From: a virus
Length of the DNA: 64,000 bases
Virus genome (UHGV): UHGV-0125682
Direction: 5' to 3' (one strand)
Below, piece by piece: positions 1 to 47,109 of this stretch (within the stretch, counting starts at the first letter, position 1; every line of letters starts with the position of its first letter). Below the pieces are notes generated by a model. That model did not search any database and had not been told where the DNA came from. It saw nothing but the letters and a program-made list of their open reading frames with translations. The position numbers were made by a program, and so were the translations under genes.

Positions 1-1001
1 CTAACAGCACGTCTGAAGTGCTGGCCGCTACACCGAAAGCTGTCAAGGCTGCATATGACCTGGCTAACGGGAAGTACACAGCCCAGGATGCAACCACGAC
101 ACAAAAAGGGATAGTTCAGCTCAGTAGCGACACCAACAGCACTTCTGAAACATTAGCTGCAACTCCAAAAGCGGTTAAAGCTGCATACGATCTAGCAGCC
201 GGAAAGGCACCATCCAATCATATACATCCCTGGAATCAGATCACTGGTGTGCCAACAGCTTCATTGACAGCGAAAGGCATCACTCAGCTCAGTAGTGCCA
301 CTAACAGCACGTCTGAAGTGCTGGCCGCTACACCGAAAGCTGTCAAGGCTGCATACGATCTGGCAAACGGAAAACAACCGGCAGATGCCACGCTCACTGC
401 TCTGGCAGGACTTGCCACTGCAGCAGATCGGTTGCCTTATTTTACCGGAGCAGACCGCGCAGCGCTGGCAACCCTTACAGCTATTGGTCGCGCTATTATC
501 GCTAAGGGCAGTATAAAAGATGTCCTCAATTACCTTGGTTTAGGAGAAGGCTCGGCGCTACCCGTTGGTGTACCTGTTCCGTGGCCCACCGCCACACCGC
601 CAGCAGGCTGGTTAAAGTGCGACGGGCGCGCCTTTACAAAAGAACAATATCCTGTTCTGGCCAGAGTCTACCCGACCCTCCGTCTTCCCGATTTACGCGG
701 TGAGTTTATTCGTGGCTGGGATGACGGACGTGGTGTGGATGCCGGGCGACAATTATTATCTTCACAGGGGGATGCAATAAGAAATATTGAGGGATTCGCA
801 GATGGCGGGATCGGTATGTCTTTTGATGCAATCAGAGGGGCTTTTTATGATGCAGGAACACGATCTGCGAGAATGCCGAATAACACAACTGATATAGGCA
901 AAACCGATGACCTTGGATTCGACGCCTCTCGTGTCGTGCCAACAGCTAATGAAAACCGTCCTCGTAATATTGCCTTTAATTATATCGTAAGGGCGGCATA
1001 A
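1..1001 (+). CDS. Tail fibre protein, 5'-partial (repeat region plus currently expressed C-terminal cassette A)
   Basis: Open in frame from window edge; ~40-aa repeats ...SE(T/V)LAATPKAVKAAYDLA(N/A)GK...; conserved segment GEGSALPVGVPVPWPTATPPAGWLKCDGR...RGEFIRGWDDGR; ends ...NRPRNIAFNYIVRAA. Confidence 0.85.
   Translation, partial: NSTSEVLAATPKAVKAAYDLANGKYTAQDATTTQKGIVQLSSDTNSTSETLAATPKAVKAAYDLAAGKAPSNHIHPWNQITGVPTASLTAKGITQLSSATNSTSEVLAATPKAVKAAYDLANGKQPADATLTALAGLATAADRLPYFTGADRAALATLTAIGRAIIAKGSIKDVLNYLGLGEGSALPVGVPVPWPTATPPAGWLKCDGRAFTKEQYPVLARVYPTLRLPDLRGEFIRGWDDGRGVDAGRQLLSSQGDAIRNIEGFADGGIGMSFDAIRGAFYDAGTRSARMPNNTTDIGKTDDLGFDASRVVPTANENRPRNIAFNYIVRAA
523..548 (+). other. Candidate invertase crossover site 1 (26 bp; complement reads TTCTCCTAAACC-AA-GGTAATTGAGGA)
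   Basis: Half-site TTCTCCTAAACC resembles gix/hix half-sites (TTCCTGTAAACC / TTCTTGAAAACC); 2-bp AA core; lies at start of repeat R1 inside coding sequence. Confidence 0.55.
537..715 (+). repeat. Repeat R1 (~170 bp, one of four near-identical copies)
   Basis: Near-identical to 1009-1190 and, in inverse orientation, to 2420-2597 and 2860-3035; encodes the conserved tail-fibre segment. Confidence 0.9.
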
Positions 1002-1020
1002 AAACGTTGGTTTAGGAGAA
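995..1020 (+). other. Candidate crossover site 2 (complement TTCTCCTAAACC-AA-CGTTTTTATGCC)
   Basis: Same conserved half-site and AA core as site 1; stop codon of cassette A lies in its variable half. Confidence 0.55.
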
Positions 1021-1524
1021 GGCTCGGCGCTACCCGTTGGTGTGCCTGTTCCGTGGCCCACCGCCACACCGCCAGCAGGCTGGTTAAAGTGCGACGGGCG
1101 CGCCTTTACAAAAGAACAATATCCTGTTCTGGCCAGAGTCTACCCGACCCTCCGTCTTCCCGATTTACGCGGTGAGTTTATCCGTGGATGGGACGACGGG
1201 CGCAAAGTTGATACAGGACGTAAGTTGCTGTCCGCACAAGGGGCAACGCTGTTAAGAACAGCAATGCTGGATTATTATAACCAGGACACTACGGGAACCT
1301 CGGGGATAGTCGGCATGGGATTCAACAATGAAGATTCCATTACAGACCTTCGTGAGGGCAGCTTTAAAATGCCGGACGGGACAACATTCAGCGATCCTGT
1401 CATAGCAATGTCAGACAATGGTATGCAGGCTACTATTCTGACCTCTATCAGAAGCGGGTATGCGAAGGGTATCACTGTCAGACCCCGTAGCATTGCACTT
1501 AATTACATTGTGAGGGCAGTTTAA
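1003..1524 (+). CDS. Silent tail-fibre C-terminal cassette B (no own start; ORF-track ATG at 1042 is incidental)
   Basis: Begins with repeat R2 encoding same conserved segment, then unique ~100 aa, ends ...RPRSIALNYIVRAV; frame closed by stop at 988-990. Confidence 0.6.
   Translation, partial: NVGLGEGSALPVGVPVPWPTATPPAGWLKCDGRAFTKEQYPVLARVYPTLRLPDLRGEFIRGWDDGRKVDTGRKLLSAQGATLLRTAMLDYYNQDTTGTSGIVGMGFNNEDSITDLREGSFKMPDGTTFSDPVIAMSDNGMQATILTSIRSGYAKGITVRPRSIALNYIVRAV
1009..1190 (+). repeat. Repeat R2
   Basis: Direct copy of R1 with one mismatch over ~170 bp. Confidence 0.9.
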
Positions 1525-2138
1525 TGAGTAACACTGCAGTTCTGGATGAAAACGGTATCGCCACTGTAGCGGGCGATATCACTGTATATCACTATGACGA
1601 GGAAACCCGGGAATACACCTCATCCTCTGTGGAGTATCTCGCCCTTGGGGTGGGTACTCCGGCACATTCGTGCGCCGATGCACCGCCGGAGGCAATTTCG
1701 GGTTACGTGGTTTGCCGGACTGCCACGCTGAACGGGTGGGAGCATGTGCCTGATCACCGCGGCGAGACGGTATACAGCACGGAGAACGGTAACCCCGTTC
1801 TGATTACCCAACCGGGTGATTACCCGGCGGACACCACCACAAAACAGCCTGCCACACCATGGGATACCTGGAACGGTGAAGCGTGGGTAACTGATACTGA
1901 ACGGCATAGAGCCGCAGAGCTGGAGACTGCCAAACTGCAACGCCAGAAACGGGTGGATCAGGCGATGAAGTCCATCGACCTCATCAACCTCAAACTGCGG
2001 GCAGGTCGCAGTCTGAAACCAGAAGAAACGGCAAAACTGAACGCCGTGCTGGATTATATCGACGAGCTGAACGCACTGGATATCAGCAAGGCACCTGAAA
2101 TCAGCTGGCCGGAAGCGCCACTGGCGCTTGCCGGCTGA
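1524..2138 (+). CDS. Tail fibre assembly protein (Tfa/U-like chaperone)
   Basis: 204 aa; start overlaps cassette B stop (TAATG); N-terminus MSNTAVLDENGIATVAGDITVYHYDEE... and size typical of Tfa. Confidence 0.75.
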   Translation: MSNTAVLDENGIATVAGDITVYHYDEETREYTSSSVEYLALGVGTPAHSCADAPPEAISGYVVCRTATLNGWEHVPDHRGETVYSTENGNPVLITQPGDYPADTTTKQPATPWDTWNGEAWVTDTERHRAAELETAKLQRQKRVDQAMKSIDLINLKLRAGRSLKPEETAKLNAVLDYIDELNALDISKAPEISWPEAPLALAG

Positions 2139-2144
2139 ACGGTA

Positions 2145-2597
2145 TCACGCCGCCCTCACGATATAGTTAAATGCGATATTGCGGGGGCGAGCTGATACAT
2201 AAGCCCACCAGTCATATCTTTGTGCACCTTTAGAGGATGCATCAAATATCCACTTTTTGCCATTTATGACCCCCAGTTGATTAGAGGTTAAAGCGTCACC
2301 AAATCCGTATTGTGTAGAGCCGAGCGAACTGATATCTCCGGTATCATTATCATCAAAACCGGATACGATAGTCCCTTCCTGAAATGAAAGTAGCGCACGC
2401 CCGGTATCAACCTTTCGTCCGTCATCCCATCCACGGATAAACTCACCGCGTAAATCGGGAAGACGGAGGGTCGGGTAGACTCTGGCCAGAACAGGATATT
2501 GTTCTTTTGTAAAGGCGCGCCCGTCGCACTTTAACCAGCCTGCTGGCGGTGTGGCGGTGGGCCACGGAACAGGTACACCAACGGGTAGCGCCGAGCC
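2145..2597 (-). CDS. Silent tail-fibre C-terminal cassette C (inverted; absent from ORF track, no ATG)
   Basis: Reverse strand translates without stops: ...LPDLRGEFIRGWDDGRKVDTGRALLSFQEGTIVSGFDD...ARPRNIAFNYIVRAA*; preceded by inverted repeat R3. Confidence 0.6.
   Translation of the reverse strand, partial: GSALPVGVPVPWPTATPPAGWLKCDGRAFTKEQYPVLARVYPTLRLPDLRGEFIRGWDDGRKVDTGRALLSFQEGTIVSGFDDNDTGDISSLGSTQYGFGDALTSNQLGVINGKKWIFDASSKGAQRYDWWAYVSARPRNIAFNYIVRAA
2420..2597 (-). repeat. Repeat R3 (inverted copy)
   Basis: Reverse complement matches R1/R2. Confidence 0.9.
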
Positions 2598-2623
2598 TTC
2601 TCCTAAACCAACGTTTCATGCCG
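2598..2623 (-). other. Candidate crossover site 3 (TTCTCCTAAACC-AA-CGTTTCATGCCG)
   Basis: Conserved half-site plus AA core, inverted relative to sites 1-2. Confidence 0.55.
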
Positions 2624-3035
2624 CCCTTACGATATAATTAAACGCAATGTTACGAGGACGAATGGTTACATAATTAACCCCATCACCTCGTGAAGGCCCT
2701 GCAAATGAAAAACGGGAAAATCCTGGTTGGTTAGAAACAATTTGGTCATAGTTATTGATTGAATGACCAGACCCAATGTCGAAATTACCTCCGTAATGAG
2801 AAAAACTTGTACCATCCTGCCGTGAAAGCAGATCGCGCCCTGTATCCACTTTTCGCCCGTCGTCCCATCCACGGATAAACTCACCGCGCAAATCGGGAAG
2901 ACGGAGGGTCGGGTAGACTCTGGCCAGAACAGGATATTGTTCTTTTGTAAAGGCGCGCCCGTCGCACTTTAACCAGCCTGCTGGCGGTGTGGCGGTGGGC
3001 CACGGAACAGGTACACCAACGGGTAGCGCCGAGCC
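2616..3035 (-). CDS. Silent tail-fibre C-terminal cassette D (inverted)
   Basis: Reverse strand: GEGSALPVGVPVPWPTATPPAGWLKCDGR...RGEFIRGWDDGRKVDTGRDLLSRQDGTSFSHYGGNFDIGSGHS...IRPRNIAFNYIVRAA*; ORF track shows only the distal 91 aa. Confidence 0.6.
   Translation of the reverse strand, partial: GSALPVGVPVPWPTATPPAGWLKCDGRAFTKEQYPVLARVYPTLRLPDLRGEFIRGWDDGRKVDTGRDLLSRQDGTSFSHYGGNFDIGSGHSINNYDQIVSNQPGFSRFSFAGPSRGDGVNYVTIRPRNIAFNYIVRAA
2860..3035 (-). repeat. Repeat R4 (inverted copy)
   Basis: Reverse complement matches R1/R2. Confidence 0.9.
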
Positions 3036-3061
3036 TTCTCCTAAACCAACGTTTATCTCTC
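3036..3061 (-). other. Candidate crossover site 4 (TTCTCCTAAACC-AA-CGTTTATCTCTC)
   Basis: Conserved half-site plus AA core; immediately upstream of invertase gene. Confidence 0.55.
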
Positions 3062-3115
3062 AAATCCTCCCCACATTATCTCAGTACTTTAACCACTCAA
3101 AAGGGAGTATTTTTA

Positions 3116-3688
3116 ATGCTGATTGGCTACATACGTGTGTCAACAAATGACCAAAACACAGATTTGCAACGCAATGCATTAATGTGCGCAGGATGTGAAC
3201 AGATTTTTGAGGACAAAATGAGCGGAACCAAGTCGGAACGACCAGGCCTGAAACGCGCTTTAAAGTGCCTTAAAAGAGGGGATACATTGGTGGTCTGGAA
3301 GCTGGATCGGTTGGGTAGAAGAATGAAACACCTCATTGCTCTCACAGAAGAGCTACGCGCAAAAGGTGTCAATTTTCGCAGTCTGACGGATTCAATCGAT
3401 ACCAGCACTCCGATGGGAAGGTTCTTTTTTCATATGATGGGTGCACTGGCAGAAATGGAGCGTGAACTGATAGTTGAGCGCACGCTGGCAGGACTGGCTG
3501 CTGCGCGATCACAAGGAAGAGTTGGAGGACGTCGCCCGAAACTGACGAAGGAGCAGCATGAGCAGATCGCAAGATTGCTCCAGAAAGGGTATGACAGAAA
3601 GCGGCTGGCAATTATCTATGATATTGGACTGTCAACGATCTACCGCTATCACCCTGTTGGGACTGTCATAACGCAACCTGAAATGTAA
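3116..3688 (+). CDS. cin: Serine DNA invertase, Hin/Gin/Cin/Pin family
   Basis: MLIGYIRVSTNDQNTDLQRNAL...VVWKLDRLGR...MGALAEMERELIVERT...; resolvase catalytic domain plus C-terminal HTH; RBS AAGGGAG; true ATG at 3116 (ORF track starts at 2987). Confidence 0.93.
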   Translation: MLIGYIRVSTNDQNTDLQRNALMCAGCEQIFEDKMSGTKSERPGLKRALKCLKRGDTLVVWKLDRLGRRMKHLIALTEELRAKGVNFRSLTDSIDTSTPMGRFFFHMMGALAEMERELIVERTLAGLAAARSQGRVGGRRPKLTKEQHEQIARLLQKGYDRKRLAIIYDIGLSTIYRYHPVGTVITQPEM

Positions 3689-3904
3689 TTCTTTTTCAAA
3701 TAATGAAACGCCGCGTGGATGCCATTTATTGCACAAGATAGAGTGCATTTATCGCGCGGCGCATCATCATTTGTTGATATGCGAATGTATCCAATAAGCA
3801 TATGTCTCCCTTGTATGCTAAGGATACGATCCTAGAAGATGTCCTGTAAGGAAATAACAAACTGACTAAGTTAGTGGCGCATTAGATGTTATTTCTGGAG
3901 GGGT

Positions 3905-4231
3905 ATGTTTGCAGATTATGAAAATCTGGCTGTAGTAGTCATAACATCCCTACTAAGTGGAACCGGCGTATTCCTTCTCGGAGTTAGAGACGGGCGCATT
4001 TCTGCGTCCCTGCTCAATCTTGCGAGTGAATTGTTTACTGCGGTAACAGCCGGGCTTGCGGGGTATGGGGTGGCGGTTAGCCAAGAATGGCCTGAAGGTA
4101 TCATTTTCTGCGTTGTTCTGATTGCCAGTAACAACGGTAGTGAAATTTTACAGGGCTTGAAGTCCAGAGCTAGTAACGTCTTGAATCTCTTAAGCGTAAT
4201 AGCGAATGGGGGAAAAGGTGGAGAGAAATAA
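3905..4231 (+). CDS. lydA: Holin-like small membrane protein (P1 LydA-like by size and position)
   Basis: 108 aa with hydrophobic segments and charged C-terminus; AT-rich; RBS GGAGGGG; follows invertase as in P1. Confidence 0.5.
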   Translation: MFADYENLAVVVITSLLSGTGVFLLGVRDGRISASLLNLASELFTAVTAGLAGYGVAVSQEWPEGIIFCVVLIASNNGSEILQGLKSRASNVLNLLSVIANGGKGGEK

Positions 4232-4677
4232 TGGGTAACTTTGGAAATTATTTCATTTTTATCATGGCATTTGTTGCCATCATTGACCGTTTCATTTTTC
4301 GTCGCAAGAGTGTTGAGATTTTGAGTATTGGTGACGCTGTAGTGAAAGAATCCGCTATAGCATTTCCTGTTTCGCTACGTGTTAAGCGAAGCTGGGTCAG
4401 CAATGCTCAAATCGAATATTGGTTGCAAGACCTGAAAAATCCATCTGTGGTTATTTCAGGGAAAACGCGACCAGTTGACGCCTCAAAACGCGGTGAGAGA
4501 GAAGAGTATTTGCTCATCGATACGAAATATCTTGAGCCAACGAAGTGGGATCTGAAAGTCACATTGACTAACGGTAACTGTCGACTGAATCCGCTTTATC
4601 GCATTTTCCCTATCAATGACTGCATAGAGCGCCAGTTTACGATCGAAAAGCGTGAAGGAGACTGGGATGTCAAATAA
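4231..4677 (+). CDS. lydB: Antiholin-like protein (P1 LydB-like by size and position)
   Basis: 148 aa, N-terminal TM; ATG overlaps upstream stop (TAATG). Confidence 0.4.
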   Translation: MGNFGNYFIFIMAFVAIIDRFIFRRKSVEILSIGDAVVKESAIAFPVSLRVKRSWVSNAQIEYWLQDLKNPSVVISGKTRPVDASKRGEREEYLLIDTKYLEPTKWDLKVTLTNGNCRLNPLYRIFPINDCIERQFTIEKREGDWDVK

Positions 4678-5287: not shown

Positions 5288-7205
5288 CAATCCTTTACGA
5301 ATTAATATTCAGTCTACTTTTGCTGATACGATCCCCGGCTATGTGCCAAGTCGCTGGTCTTCAGAAGAATTAAGCGAAGATGACCTGATTTTTGAGGCGG
5401 CGACCTTAGAAGATATTGAGCTTGCCTATATGGGCAATGAAATTCTGGTTGTGTCTGACGAAGCTATGTTTGAGTCCATAACTACAACCAGAATTCGGTT
5501 AGCTCAAACAATGCGAGCTTTCGTCCGTGCGCTGAATCGTGGCCTGAATGGTACGAATATTATGGCAGGGACTGATGAAGCCGGGACCGATGAAAATGGA
5601 CGTAATTGTATTGGTGGTGCGATTATCGGTCGTGTACGTCGGGTAGCTAATATCCCTGTTTTGACCGCGCAGATACCGCTTACTGACGGGCAGAGTACAA
5701 GCATAATTTTCCACTCTCCAACAGCTGACGGGGCAAAAATAAAGAGTAACGACGAGCTTGTTGCATTTCAGTTTTTACTTAATAAGCGTAACGTAACTCA
5801 CGTTGTCGCCCCGATTGGTGGGAGAGATGTTTCTTTAAGCCAGGTATGCCAGGCGCTATCTAATTTGATTGAGCGTAACAGCGAAAAATTTAAGAAAGCA
5901 AAAGAGCGCCAGGACAAAATGAAGGCAGATATTGAGAGTTATCTCAATGAAGCAGATAAACTGGCAGAAGAACGGTCAATAATGATTGATCAGGTGGACG
6001 TTGCGCAACGTGGGCTGACTGAAAAGCGTGCTGCTCTTACGGAGATGCAAAAAAAACTTGATGCCCAGAAAGCCATCAACGAGGAATTACAAGAAAAACG
6101 CGATAAATTGTTGTCTGCTAAAGGTGAAAAAACGAAGGAACGAGCGTTTAGTGACCAGCTGCGACATGTAAAACATAATCTTGCCATTGACGGAAAAACA
6201 GTGCTGGATAATGGCGCTGAAGTTAATTATATCACGTCCGGCAGTGACAATTTCGTTACGATAGTAGCACCTGAAGGTAAATTCAGTATTGATGCCAGTG
6301 CTGTCAAAGGAGGCAGTTTGGCAGATGCTGCAACCAAATTACTTAAAGCCTACCGAGAGCATAACGCAGATAAATATAAAGTTGATGTGTTACCAGGCCA
6401 GCAGGAAGACCCCGAACCACCACAGACAGACCCCGAGACGAACCCAGTATCACAACCAGAGAGCCAGGATGTAGGTAAATACCACTATGCACTTCAATCT
6501 CGCCCGGCTGGTGTTGGTGCTGTGCCGGATGGAAATAAAGCCGTGCTTGATCGTCCTGACCAGGCTGATCAGTATTACGAATATGCTCGTCACGGTATCA
6601 TTACGTATGACCGTAAACTGACAGATGAAGAAGTCAGCCAGTACGAGTTGCTCTATCTTCCTGATGAAGATGAGCTGAAAGATTTTGCAGGCCAATTGGT
6701 TGTGTCCAGCATGTCGAAACATATTGATGGCTATGTAGACCTGTTTGGCAGTGACCTGAAAACATTCAAGGCGCAAGTGAAAATTCTTTTCCGCAAAGCG
6801 TTTCCAAACGTGGCGTATCCACTTGGTGATGGGGAGAACCTTTTCATTATGGACGTGTATAACGCCCTTCAAAATCATTCAAGCGAAGTAAAAACAGAGC
6901 ATGTGGTTGAGCCGGAATCACAACCACAACCAGCACCAGAACAGGAGCCGGAGCCAGAAGAAGCTGGTGAATCAGCAAGTGAAGCTGATCAGGAGGCAGA
7001 TAAAGCACTGGAGTACCTGAAATCCGTGCCGGAGCAGTTTACATCCCGCGATCTGACGGTCATCAGTGCTGAACTTGATCATGTGCAGGAAGCAGCAAAC
7101 GCTCTAATCAGCGCAGGTCGATACGACGAGAACGAAGCCACTGTTGGTGCAGCAGTTGACTACCTGATCAACATTCTGGCTGAAATTCAGCAGGGAGGTG
7201 CTTAA
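5283..7205 (+). CDS. darA: DarA-like anti-restriction / capsid-internal protein
   Basis: ~640 aa; central coiled coil and acidic PE-rich linkers; size and order match P1 dar operon; no sequence motif independently confirms it. Confidence 0.45.
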   Translation: MNNPLRINIQSTFADTIPGYVPSRWSSEELSEDDLIFEAATLEDIELAYMGNEILVVSDEAMFESITTTRIRLAQTMRAFVRALNRGLNGTNIMAGTDEAGTDENGRNCIGGAIIGRVRRVANIPVLTAQIPLTDGQSTSIIFHSPTADGAKIKSNDELVAFQFLLNKRNVTHVVAPIGGRDVSLSQVCQALSNLIERNSEKFKKAKERQDKMKADIESYLNEADKLAEERSIMIDQVDVAQRGLTEKRAALTEMQKKLDAQKAINEELQEKRDKLLSAKGEKTKERAFSDQLRHVKHNLAIDGKTVLDNGAEVNYITSGSDNFVTIVAPEGKFSIDASAVKGGSLADAATKLLKAYREHNADKYKVDVLPGQQEDPEPPQTDPETNPVSQPESQDVGKYHYALQSRPAGVGAVPDGNKAVLDRPDQADQYYEYARHGIITYDRKLTDEEVSQYELLYLPDEDELKDFAGQLVVSSMSKHIDGYVDLFGSDLKTFKAQVKILFRKAFPNVAYPLGDGENLFIMDVYNALQNHSSEVKTEHVVEPESQPQPAPEQEPEPEEAGESASEADQEADKALEYLKSVPEQFTSRDLTVISAELDHVQEAANALISAGRYDENEATVGAAVDYLINILAEIQQGGA

Positions 7206-29124: not shown

Positions 29125-29201
29125 GATGGTGTAGCTCAGTAGGATAGAGCAGCAGCCTTCTAAGCTGTCGGTCGGTGGTTCGAATCCACCCACCATCGCC
29201 A
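29125..29201 (+). tRNA. tRNA-Arg (anticodon TCT)
   Basis: Cloverleaf folded by hand: acceptor GATGGTG/CACCATC, D-arm GCTC..GAGC, anticodon loop CTTCTAA, T-loop TTCGAAT, 3' GCCA. Confidence 0.85.
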
Positions 29202-29203
29202 AT

Positions 29204-29279
29204 GCCGGTTTAGCTCAGTTGGTAGAGCGCCTGCCTTGTAAGCAGGATGTCAGCGGTTCGAGTCCGTTAACCGGCACCA
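29204..29279 (+). tRNA. tRNA-Thr (anticodon TGT)
   Basis: Acceptor GCCGGTT/AACCGGC, D-loop AGTTGGTA, anticodon loop CTTGTAA, T-loop TTCGAGT, 3' ACCA. Confidence 0.85.
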
Positions 29280-31116: not shown

Positions 31117-31192
31117 GGCCCTTTAGCTCAGTGGTTAGAGCTGGCGACTCATAATCGCACGGTCACCGGTTCAAGTCCGGTAGGGGCCACCA
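31117..31192 (+). tRNA. tRNA with CAT anticodon (Met or lysidine-modified Ile2)
   Basis: Acceptor GGCCCTT/AGGGGCC, D-loop AGTGGTTA, anticodon loop CTCATAA, T-loop TTCAAGT, 3' ACCA. Confidence 0.85.
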
Positions 31193-46347: not shown

Positions 46348-47109
46348 TTACTCACCTCCTTTGATGCGAATGCCTGCAGCGCGGATTGCAGCGATGACTT
46401 CAGAAACTTTGTATGCCATTACCGTTTGGTAATCATCGTGAAAATCTGTTCGATGAAGCATGCTGCTACGTTCCGGGAGCGATATTTCCCGAGCATCCAG
46501 TTCCTTAACGCGTTCCTCCAGTTCGTAGACCCTGCATTGTTCTCTATCATCAATCAGATATAACCCAAGACATTCGCTTTCTACCCAACCGCCAAAATCA
46601 TGATCGTAACGCTCACATGAAAACTCACCGTCACCGTCCTTTGTTGGAATGGTGTAACTATCTAATGGGCCACCATATGTCGGCACATTTCCCAATGTTG
46701 GATGCTCAATCCACATGAAAAATGCACGTCCGGTTATTGGGCAAATATCTGGCCGCCATTGGTTACGAACAGCCTTGGTTTCGGATAATTCTTCAGCGTG
46801 TTGTTTTACTTCCTCAAGCTCAACTCTCAGCTTCCCTACCGTTAGCGCAATATCCTCGTTCTCCTGATCGCGGCGTTTTATGTATTGCTGGTTTCTTTCC
46901 CGTTCATCCAGAAGCGCCAAGACGGTAGCCGGATTGGCTGCGGCGATGAATTCAGCATCACGAGATTCGTTTTCACTGAACACCATAGCTATTTGCTCAT
47001 GGTTTATGCCGTCAGTGGAGTAAATCTCATCGTCGAATTCAACAGCCCACTTACCTTTCGTAGCCTTCTCTGCCGCCTCACGCAGTGCCTGATAGTCAAT
47101 CTTGCTCAC
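46348..47109 (-). CDS. Hypothetical protein (MSKIDYQALREAAE... N-terminal family, Ea22-like)
   Basis: 253 aa; N-terminus shared with 47847-48032. Confidence 0.55.
   Translation of the reverse strand: MSKIDYQALREAAEKATKGKWAVEFDDEIYSTDGINHEQIAMVFSENESRDAEFIAAANPATVLALLDERERNQQYIKRRDQENEDIALTVGKLRVELEEVKQHAEELSETKAVRNQWRPDICPITGRAFFMWIEHPTLGNVPTYGGPLDSYTIPTKDGDGEFSCERYDHDFGGWVESECLGLYLIDDREQCRVYELEERVKELDAREISLPERSSMLHRTDFHDDYQTVMAYKVSEVIAAIRAAGIRIKGGE

Follow-up and report, generated by a model that had tools for sequence, protein, structure and literature searches.

The subject of the present analysis is a tail-fibre locus at the left-hand end of a stretch of 64,000 nucleotides (the window; 64 kb) of the virus genome UHGV-0125682. 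The locus is made up of a constant 5' fibre part (Sc), four alternative 3' cassettes (A, B, C and D), one tail-fibre assembly gene (tfa, also designated U) and one intact invertase gene, and with this single invertase and four crossover sites, two per orientation, its invertible segments overlap. We hold with high confidence that it constitutes a Min-type multiple DNA-inversion system by which a D6/P1-like Escherichia coli phage-plasmid switches the receptor-binding tip of its tail fibre.

Genes and crossover sites of the locus

A repeat search reveals four copies of a sequence of about 230 bp, two on the plus strand (532-771 and 1004-1243) and two on the minus strand (2371-2616 and 2809-3054). 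Identity amounts to 90% for the first direct pair, to 94% for the second and to 94-96% for the inverted pairs across the two sets, which align over 217-231 nt; in the four-way alignment, an unbroken run of about 160 columns is invariant save for one position, and identity falls off past about 215-240 nt. These repeats are the heads of four cassettes, every one of which is open from its crossover site to a stop codon and closes on RPR(N/S)IA(F/L)NYIVRA(A/V). Cassette A (534-1001, plus strand), fused in frame to Sc, is the expressed allele; it ends in NYIVRAA, its stop codon (999-1001) lying inside site 2. The remaining three are silent tail-collar tips: B (1006-1524, plus strand) of 172 residues, ending in NYIVRAV; C (2145-2612, minus strand) of 155 residues, arranged tail-to-tail with tfa; and D (2616-3050, minus strand) of 144 residues, whose stop codon falls inside site 3. 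All four fusions of Sc to a cassette are open in frame.

The first 66 residues are common to the four cassettes except for position 1 (L or V), and they are followed by a variable stretch of 60-90 residues; over the whole cassette, A shares 57-62% protein identity with B, C and D. The Pfam Collar domain (PF07484) is recognized in each of them with E-values of about 1e-15, and no fifth collar cassette was found in the window by tblastn. A profile built from the four cassettes matches a short tail fibre (9cuy, E=2e-21) and also the tip of T4 gp37 (2xgf), the latter in two pieces that flank the needle and include NIAFNYIVRL. Since the collar halves of the gp37 tip flank a receptor-binding needle, the variable middle of the cassettes is likely to represent a receptor-binding insertion.

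Upstream of the array, Sc (1-534, plus strand) belongs to an open reading frame (ORF) that extends without a stop from position 1 (18 in the ORF list) and contains Phage_fiber_2 repeats (Pfam, E=4.8e-47), the fibre gene being truncated by the 5' edge of the window. Sc is 99% identical to its counterparts in related plasmids and in prophage Phi2 of the ST131 strain EC958. The first 370 nt of the window can be aligned to related plasmids in several registers spaced by 300 bp (L001 and L002 among the related loci, to which we refer by L numbers), and in a comparison of the fibre shaft (window 1-373; L001, L002, L004, L007, L012 and L014) the annotated fibre genes of the relatives range from 1887 to 3531 bp. 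These observations suggest that the copy number of Phage_fiber_2 repeats may underlie a fibre-length polymorphism among the relatives, the copy number of the window's own gene being hidden by the 5' edge.

Four 26-bp crossover sites of the form TTCTCCTAAACC-AA-N12, two per strand, stand at the heads of the repeats. The inner half TTCTCCTAAACC and the AA core are the same at all four; the outer half varies with what adjoins it. Site 1 (523-548, minus strand; TTCTCCTAAACC AA GGTAATTGAGGA) has the end of Sc as its outer half and a cassette head as its inner half; site 2 (995-1020, minus strand; TTCTCCTAAACC AA CGTTTTTATGCC), oriented like site 1, takes its outer half from the 3' end of cassette A, site 3 (2598-2623, plus strand; TTCTCCTAAACC AA CGTTTCATGCCG) from the 3' end of cassette D, and site 4 (3036-3061, plus strand; TTCTCCTAAACC AA CGTTTATCTCTC) from the invertase leader. 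As a consequence of this layout two kinds of unit can be told apart: A and D each begin with a head half-site and finish, within their last codons (...GCGGCATAAAAACG and ...GCGGCATGAAACG), in a tail half-site, and the segment B-tfa-C bears head half-sites at both ends.

Within the window the 14-mer TTCTCCTAAACCAA has exactly four copies, two of them minus-strand (535-548 and 1007-1020) and two plus-strand (2598-2611 and 3036-3049), and allowing up to two mismatches yields five matches versus 0.32 expected by chance, a count that none of 100 shuffles reaches. The fifth match, TTATCCGAAACCAA (two mismatches; 46775-46788, minus strand), is distant from the switch and at chance level (0.32 expected), and we do not regard it as a functional quasi-site. 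The four sites match both the consensus of Table 3 in PMC4134206 and the cix sites of D6. Site 1 is identical to the Phi2_5prime crossover site of EC958, site 4 shares its outer half with the Phi2_3prime site of the same strain and differs from it at two positions of the inner half, site 3 is the boundary of a natural inversion separating L014 from L010, and the tail-derived outer half of site 2 recurs at internal sites of L015, L019 and L020.

Three variants of the inner half-site (TTCTCCT, TTCCCCC and TTCTCCC) are mixed among the sites of relatives (L001, L004, L005, L009 and L015). In the window, TTCTCCT is present at all four sites and the heads are identical over about 160 nt, and because the relatives mix variants, this uniformity suggests that the heads of the window may have been homogenized recently by gene conversion. 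L004 and L005 are 99.96% identical, yet the inner half of their site 1 differs; the middle site of L004 carries a 1-nt deletion.

The invertase gene (3116-3688, plus strand) encodes a serine DNA invertase of 190 residues that belongs to the Gin/Cin/Hin/Pin/Min group and is transcribed away from the invertible DNA. The protein combines a Resolvase domain (PF00239, E=2.2e-50, residues 3-135) with an HTH_7 domain (PF02796, E=1.3e-12, residues 138-180), and it aligns with Gin (4m6f) at E=8e-94, with 138 of 181 residues identical (76%), and with gamma-delta resolvase at E=4e-32; identity to the Cin proteins of P1 and D6 is 69-70% (132 of 190 residues for P1). The catalytic Ser9, in the motif GYIRVSTNDQ, aligns with Ser9 of Gin (Ala in the 3uj3 mutant). 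The very same protein is encoded in L001, L007, L010 and L014, and that of EC958 differs by one residue. No second intact invertase is present in the window, its sole trace being a remnant of 13 cin codons.

A putative recombinational enhancer bound by Fis can be placed by its position at 3134-3205 (plus strand), inside the 5' end of the invertase gene, the Cin enhancer being annotated at nt 19-90 of cin in the P1 record. The matching interval is 75% identical to P1, versus 67% for nt 91-390, a difference from which coding constraint is inseparable; at third-codon positions the corresponding figures are 50% and 33%. Two Fis-like 15-mers of the form G-N13-C, a very degenerate motif, are found at nt 22-36 and 71-85 of the invertase gene.

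The tail-fibre assembly gene (1524-2138, plus strand; Pfam Caudo_TAP, E=1e-26) overlaps the stop codon of B in the sequence TAATG. A tblastn search uncovered no other tfa in the window, and a sequence search with the protein returned no homologue of solved structure.

Much of this anatomy had been anticipated by an earlier note made from the letters of the window. Its four near-identical repeats, two direct and two inverted, are all found, at a length of about 230 bp and not the roughly 170 bp it gave them; the shared segment encoded by each repeat ahead of distinct cassettes ending in NYIVRA(A/V), the 26-bp site with common half-site and AA core at the start of each repeat, the adjoining invertase of the Hin/Gin/Cin family and the single assembly gene after B were all borne out. 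All the structural features that it described thus hold, with the further corrections that the fibre gene is cut by the 5' edge of the window and that the remnant of a second invertase gene lies at 3763-3801 (minus strand).

Isomers and the agent of inversion

We propose that the invertase, presumably helped by host Fis on an enhancer in its own 5' coding region, would pair any two oppositely oriented 26-bp sites and exchange strands at the central AA/TT dinucleotide. Because the inner half-site would travel with the cassette and the outer half-site would stay, each inversion would restore ...NYL/GLGEG... in frame and thereby mount a different collar-domain tip on a constant fibre shaft. Given that A and D carry a head and a tail half-site while B-tfa-C has heads at both ends, the legal arrangements consist of any number of single cassettes in forward orientation, followed by the double-headed segment either way round and then by the remaining singles reversed. 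Enumeration shows that 12 isomers are reachable, with A expressed in four of them, D in four, B in two and C in two. The count follows 2(n+1)!, where n is the number of single cassettes, which yields 2 isomers in the case of P1 and Mu, 4 for the type found in enteropathogenic E. coli (EPEC) and EC958, 12 for the window and 240 for the six sites of p15B, in agreement with the four EPEC variants and with the published 240 of p15B.

Natural isomers exist among close relatives, where near-identical plasmids encoding the same invertase protein are distinguished solely by inversions that these sites delimit. Plasmids pF719-4 (L007) and pF801-4 (L008) are 100% identical on both flanks and differ between them by an inversion of 1836 bp whose ends share 15 nt only, corresponding to the inner half-site, and their invertase protein is the same as that of the window. 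Homologous recombination is excluded for this pair because so little sequence is shared at the exchanged ends, and for the same reason the enzyme requires nothing beyond the site itself. In the same vein, pGF4-B (Sc/B-U-C'/D') and pF374-2 (Sc/C-U'-B'/D') share their backbone proteins and their invertase and are set apart by inversion of B-tfa-C, the first site having recombined with the internal one. The four-site relative pKY1497_2 (Sc/A/D/B-U-X') displays the arrangement of the window after two inversions, and its sites are chimeric, with outer and inner halves re-assorted at the core; in L015, where D follows A in plus orientation, half-site variants re-assort exactly at the central dinucleotide.

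Beyond these pairs, all four predicted fibre fusions are present in public genomes. The Sc/B fusion occurs in L002, L009 (EC958) and L014 and is the common ST131 arrangement; Sc and C are contiguous in L010 and in at least 12 complete E. coli genomes among the matches listed, with 137 genomes reaching a coverage of at least 80%; and Sc and D are contiguous in at least one genome (NZ_CP196521.1). The region as a whole has matches in 2168 of 5426 complete E. coli genomes. The Phi2 locus of EC958, a module of three cassettes with 97% identity to that of the window, is 93-100% identical to the window part by part (Sc, B, tfa, C, D, leader and invertase), and its inverting segment is bounded by a site identical to site 1 and by one matching site 4. 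PacBio reads of EC958 show this 2067-bp segment in both orientations (Forde 2014, PMC4134206), and PCR confirmed a switch on a P2-like prophage of EPEC in which three repeats and three C-termini give four variants (Goldberg 2014, PMC4272514).

Some considerations weigh against extending this picture to UHGV-0125682. The window is a single static sequence, so that the evidence for isomers comes from its relatives, and its exact combination of four cassettes was not found in phages, PLSDB plasmids or complete E. coli genomes, the nearest layout being that of pCUVET20-PYO4.3, with the same arrangement and a different first cassette. The putative enhancer is supported by position and modest conservation, and its two 15-mers are 49 nt apart, not the 48 nt that separate the Fis sites of the Hin and Gin enhancers. 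Finally, near-identical heads of about 230 bp also permit inversion or deletion mediated by RecA, and where the heads are identical the sequence alone cannot separate the two processes.

The first of these points bears on whether the locus might be a frozen relic, its cassettes being left from past rearrangements and its enzyme, enhancer or sites being inactive in this copy. One arrangement is visible in the window, and a relative that should be locked does exist in pAVS0973-B (L013), where IS26 follows the conserved leader in place of the invertase gene. The invertase ORF of the window, however, is intact and encodes the same protein as plasmids found as alternative isomers, the inner half-site and AA core are perfect at all four sites, and all four cassettes are open; with an intact gene, perfect sites and an identical enzyme active elsewhere, we consider such a relic quite unlikely and infer that this copy is active. 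With regard to pAVS0973-B itself (NZ_CP124473.1, an IncY P1-like plasmid), region 5852-6991 retains an intact leader, no invertase gene was detected there, and IS26 lies about 350 bp downstream of the leader; without an invertase acting in trans, its multi-cassette array would be expected to stay locked.

A different agent would be at work if rearrangement proceeded mainly by RecA-dependent recombination between heads, the invertase playing a minor part. The heads are long and similar enough to allow it (94-96% identity over 217-246 nt, about 160 nt of them identical in all four), and taking a single repeat unit and cassette A (472 bp in all) out of the window yields exactly p13ZX28-90, the outcome to be expected of recombination between direct repeats. 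Homologous recombination would, however, be expected at frequencies far below the inversion levels of EC958. In that strain about half of the reads are inverted for Phi1, and separate contigs are obtained for Phi2 (PMC4134206). Moreover, the 15 nt shared by the exchanged ends of pF719-4 and pF801-4 are centred on the crossover site, which marks a site-specific event, and the re-assortment of half-site variants in L015 falls exactly on the central dinucleotide. A purely homologous mechanism was rejected, and we rate predominant RecA action as very improbable. Head-to-head homologous recombination may contribute, and it could explain the one-unit difference from p13ZX28-90.

The extra cassette of the window might also be thought an artefact of assembly, mixed isomers having been merged into one contig with a spurious duplication, and contigs of alternative alleles can indeed be wrongly integrated in assemblies (PMC4134206). 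Against this, A is no copy of B, C or D, as its 57-62% identity to them attests, the junction of the A tail with the B head is contiguous at 97-98% in three independent chromosomes, and A and D are stacked in pKY1497_2. As A is a distinct cassette and the A-B junction recurs independently, the artefact was rejected and its probability is practically negligible. Site-specific inversion by the resident invertase remains the interpretation that we favour for the switch, and within it a dependence on Fis and an enhancer, together with a change of host range with each tip, would be anticipated.

If this is so, one prophage could release virions with four receptor-binding tips, a form of bet-hedging that would widen the host range and bear on how D6/P1-like phage-plasmids, frequent carriers of resistance genes, spread. 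The same structure matters for annotation, in which 'phage tail protein' is the label given to silent cassettes, and for assembly, in which errors can arise from isomers.

The assembly gene and cassettes without a chaperone

That C and D would be expressed without a dedicated chaperone had been singled out as a feature of this locus. As a fact this is correct; as a peculiarity it is not, since C and D lack a tfa in 15 of the 15 related loci mapped and in the window A lacks one as well. Larger arrays display the same economy: the P1-like plasmid pEND_Eco 12053-2 combines 8 sites and 8 cassettes with one tfa, and the P1-like plasmid pATCC10729_02 of Salmonella Pomona combines 9 sites and 9 cassettes with one tfa; in NZ_CP126930.1 (L019, 2721-7231; 8 sites and cassettes) and NZ_CP019188.1 (L020, 3152-8086; 9 sites and cassettes) the single tfa is accompanied by a single invertase. 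The L019 and L020 arrays exceed the six sites of p15B, their invertase is 84% identical to that of the window, and the 2(n+1)! rule implies about 10,080 possible isomers for L019 and 80,640 for L020. Judged from the 15 mapped loci with tfa-less C and D and from these arrays of 8-9 cassettes with a single tfa, cassettes without a chaperone of their own are the norm in this family.

According to the enumeration, tfa points the same way as the fibre operon in every isomer that expresses B, in none that expresses C, and in half of those that express A or D. A search for internal promoters and terminators that might render tfa expression independent of orientation gave three of each in positions 1-4300, versus shuffle means of 4.9 and 4.2, and none was usefully placed.

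Cassette A has relatives that do possess an assembly gene. In L007, L011 and L012, relatives of A (96-97% nucleotide identity) are followed by their own tfa, and in pF719-4, pS143-4 and p95_MLI121 this gene, U_A, is 50% identical to U and joined to A by a TAATG overlap. In the window, homology to these relatives breaks directly past the stop codon of A, and site 2 comes next. In L007 and L008 the invertase protein found in the window also acts on a two-allele segment (2723-4579): one allele is a collar cassette akin to A and followed by a tfa of its own, whereas the second is a non-collar tip, unrelated to the first, that is paired with a short tfa.

A tentative idea, for which we claim rather less than even chances, is that tfa-less cassettes might be self-contained portable units, each composed of a head half-site, a chaperone-independent collar and a tail half-site, that would be traded between P2-like prophages and P1/D6-like phage-plasmids and stacked like the cassettes of integrons, units being gained or lost by the invertase or by recombination between heads as well as inverted. 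The window and p13ZX28-90 differ by exactly one such unit. If collar tips that have no tfa beside them can assemble on their own, small exchangeable tips of about 150 residues would be useful for engineering the host range of phages or tailocins.

Origin of the module and relation to known systems

Downstream of position 3767, 24 kb of the window align to phage D6 with 97.9% identity at 89% coverage, by virtue of which the element is recognized as a D6-like (P1-like) phage-plasmid. Homology to P2-like prophages stops at 3766/3767, and homology to D6 starts at 3767. Astride this boundary, at 3763-3801 on the minus strand, lie 13 codons of a D6/P1-type cin start (MLIGYIRISTNDD...), inverted relative to the start of the resident invertase, with which they form a 35-nt inverted repeat (83%); the P1 record notes that p15B keeps a similar 5' remnant of cin beside the lyd genes. 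In D6 itself the C segment is of the classical kind, having two sites that enclose S/U and S'/U', and cin is read from the other strand; this region is replaced in the window. From the homology joint and the surviving cin start we conclude that the switch was imported as a module, 3766/3767 being the right-hand joint of a swap that replaced the two-site C segment of D6 together with its cin. Farther along, the window contains three tRNA genes (Arg-TCT, Thr-TGT and Met-CAT) at 29125-29279 and 31117-31192 (plus strand).

The system of UHGV-0125682 is of intermediate size within a very widespread family that has been known for a long time and that includes Min of p15B, of which pJIE250-3 carries a 98.5% homologue, and the switches of ST131 and EPEC prophages. 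It establishes no new principle, the enzyme family, the design of the sites, the multi-site logic and most of the DNA having already been described. Larger inversion arrays have reportedly been known since p15B (1990). The resemblance to Min that the earlier note proposed, beyond the two-cassette systems of P1 and Mu, is upheld by the four sites, the 12 isomers and the natural isomers among relatives.

The word shufflon, which the same note employed, is apt as regards multiple inversion and inapt in its strict sense, which denotes the R64 system. Both systems use multiple inversions to choose among alternative C-termini of a surface adhesin (PilV in R64), but the recombinase of R64 is Rci, a tyrosine enzyme that works on sfx sites and involves neither Fis nor an enhancer, whereas the sole recombinase at the present locus is a serine recombinase; an R64-type shufflon was ruled out for that reason, and the term applies by analogy only.

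With the C segment of P1 and D6 (Cin) and the G segment of Mu (Gin), the switch shares its enzyme family, its purpose, the design of its 26-bp sites (D6 cix: TTCTCTTAAACCAAGG...) and its place beside lydA/lydB. In contrast to its four sites, collar-only cassettes of about 0.45 kb and one tfa, the C and G segments are two-site systems with a pair of alleles, each provided with its own tfa (U or U'), and with variable parts of about 1.5 kb; furthermore, cin of P1 and of D6 is transcribed towards the segment, and the invertase of the window is oriented oppositely.

A further parallel is Min of p15B (Sandmeier, Iida, Arber 1990-1992), likewise part of a P1-related plasmid prophage, in which one serine invertase acts on more than two sites to give overlapping segments, alternative 3' ends are joined to a constant 5' fibre ORF, and the same isomer rule, 2(n+1)!, applies. 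The two differ in the number of sites (six in p15B, four here) and in the backbone, which is P1/IncY-like in p15B and D6-like in the window; p15B (X62121) was compared by description.

Two other close counterparts are Phi2 of EC958, which is essentially the same DNA (93-100%), has an identical 5' site and was observed to invert, and the EPEC switch (PMC4272514; compared by its published description), with its architecture of three repeats and four variants. Those switches reside on chromosomal P2-like prophages, while that of the window is carried by a phage-plasmid and has an extra unit, cassette A with site 2, stacked directly before B, whereby the three tips and four isomers of EC958 and EPEC become four tips and 12 isomers.

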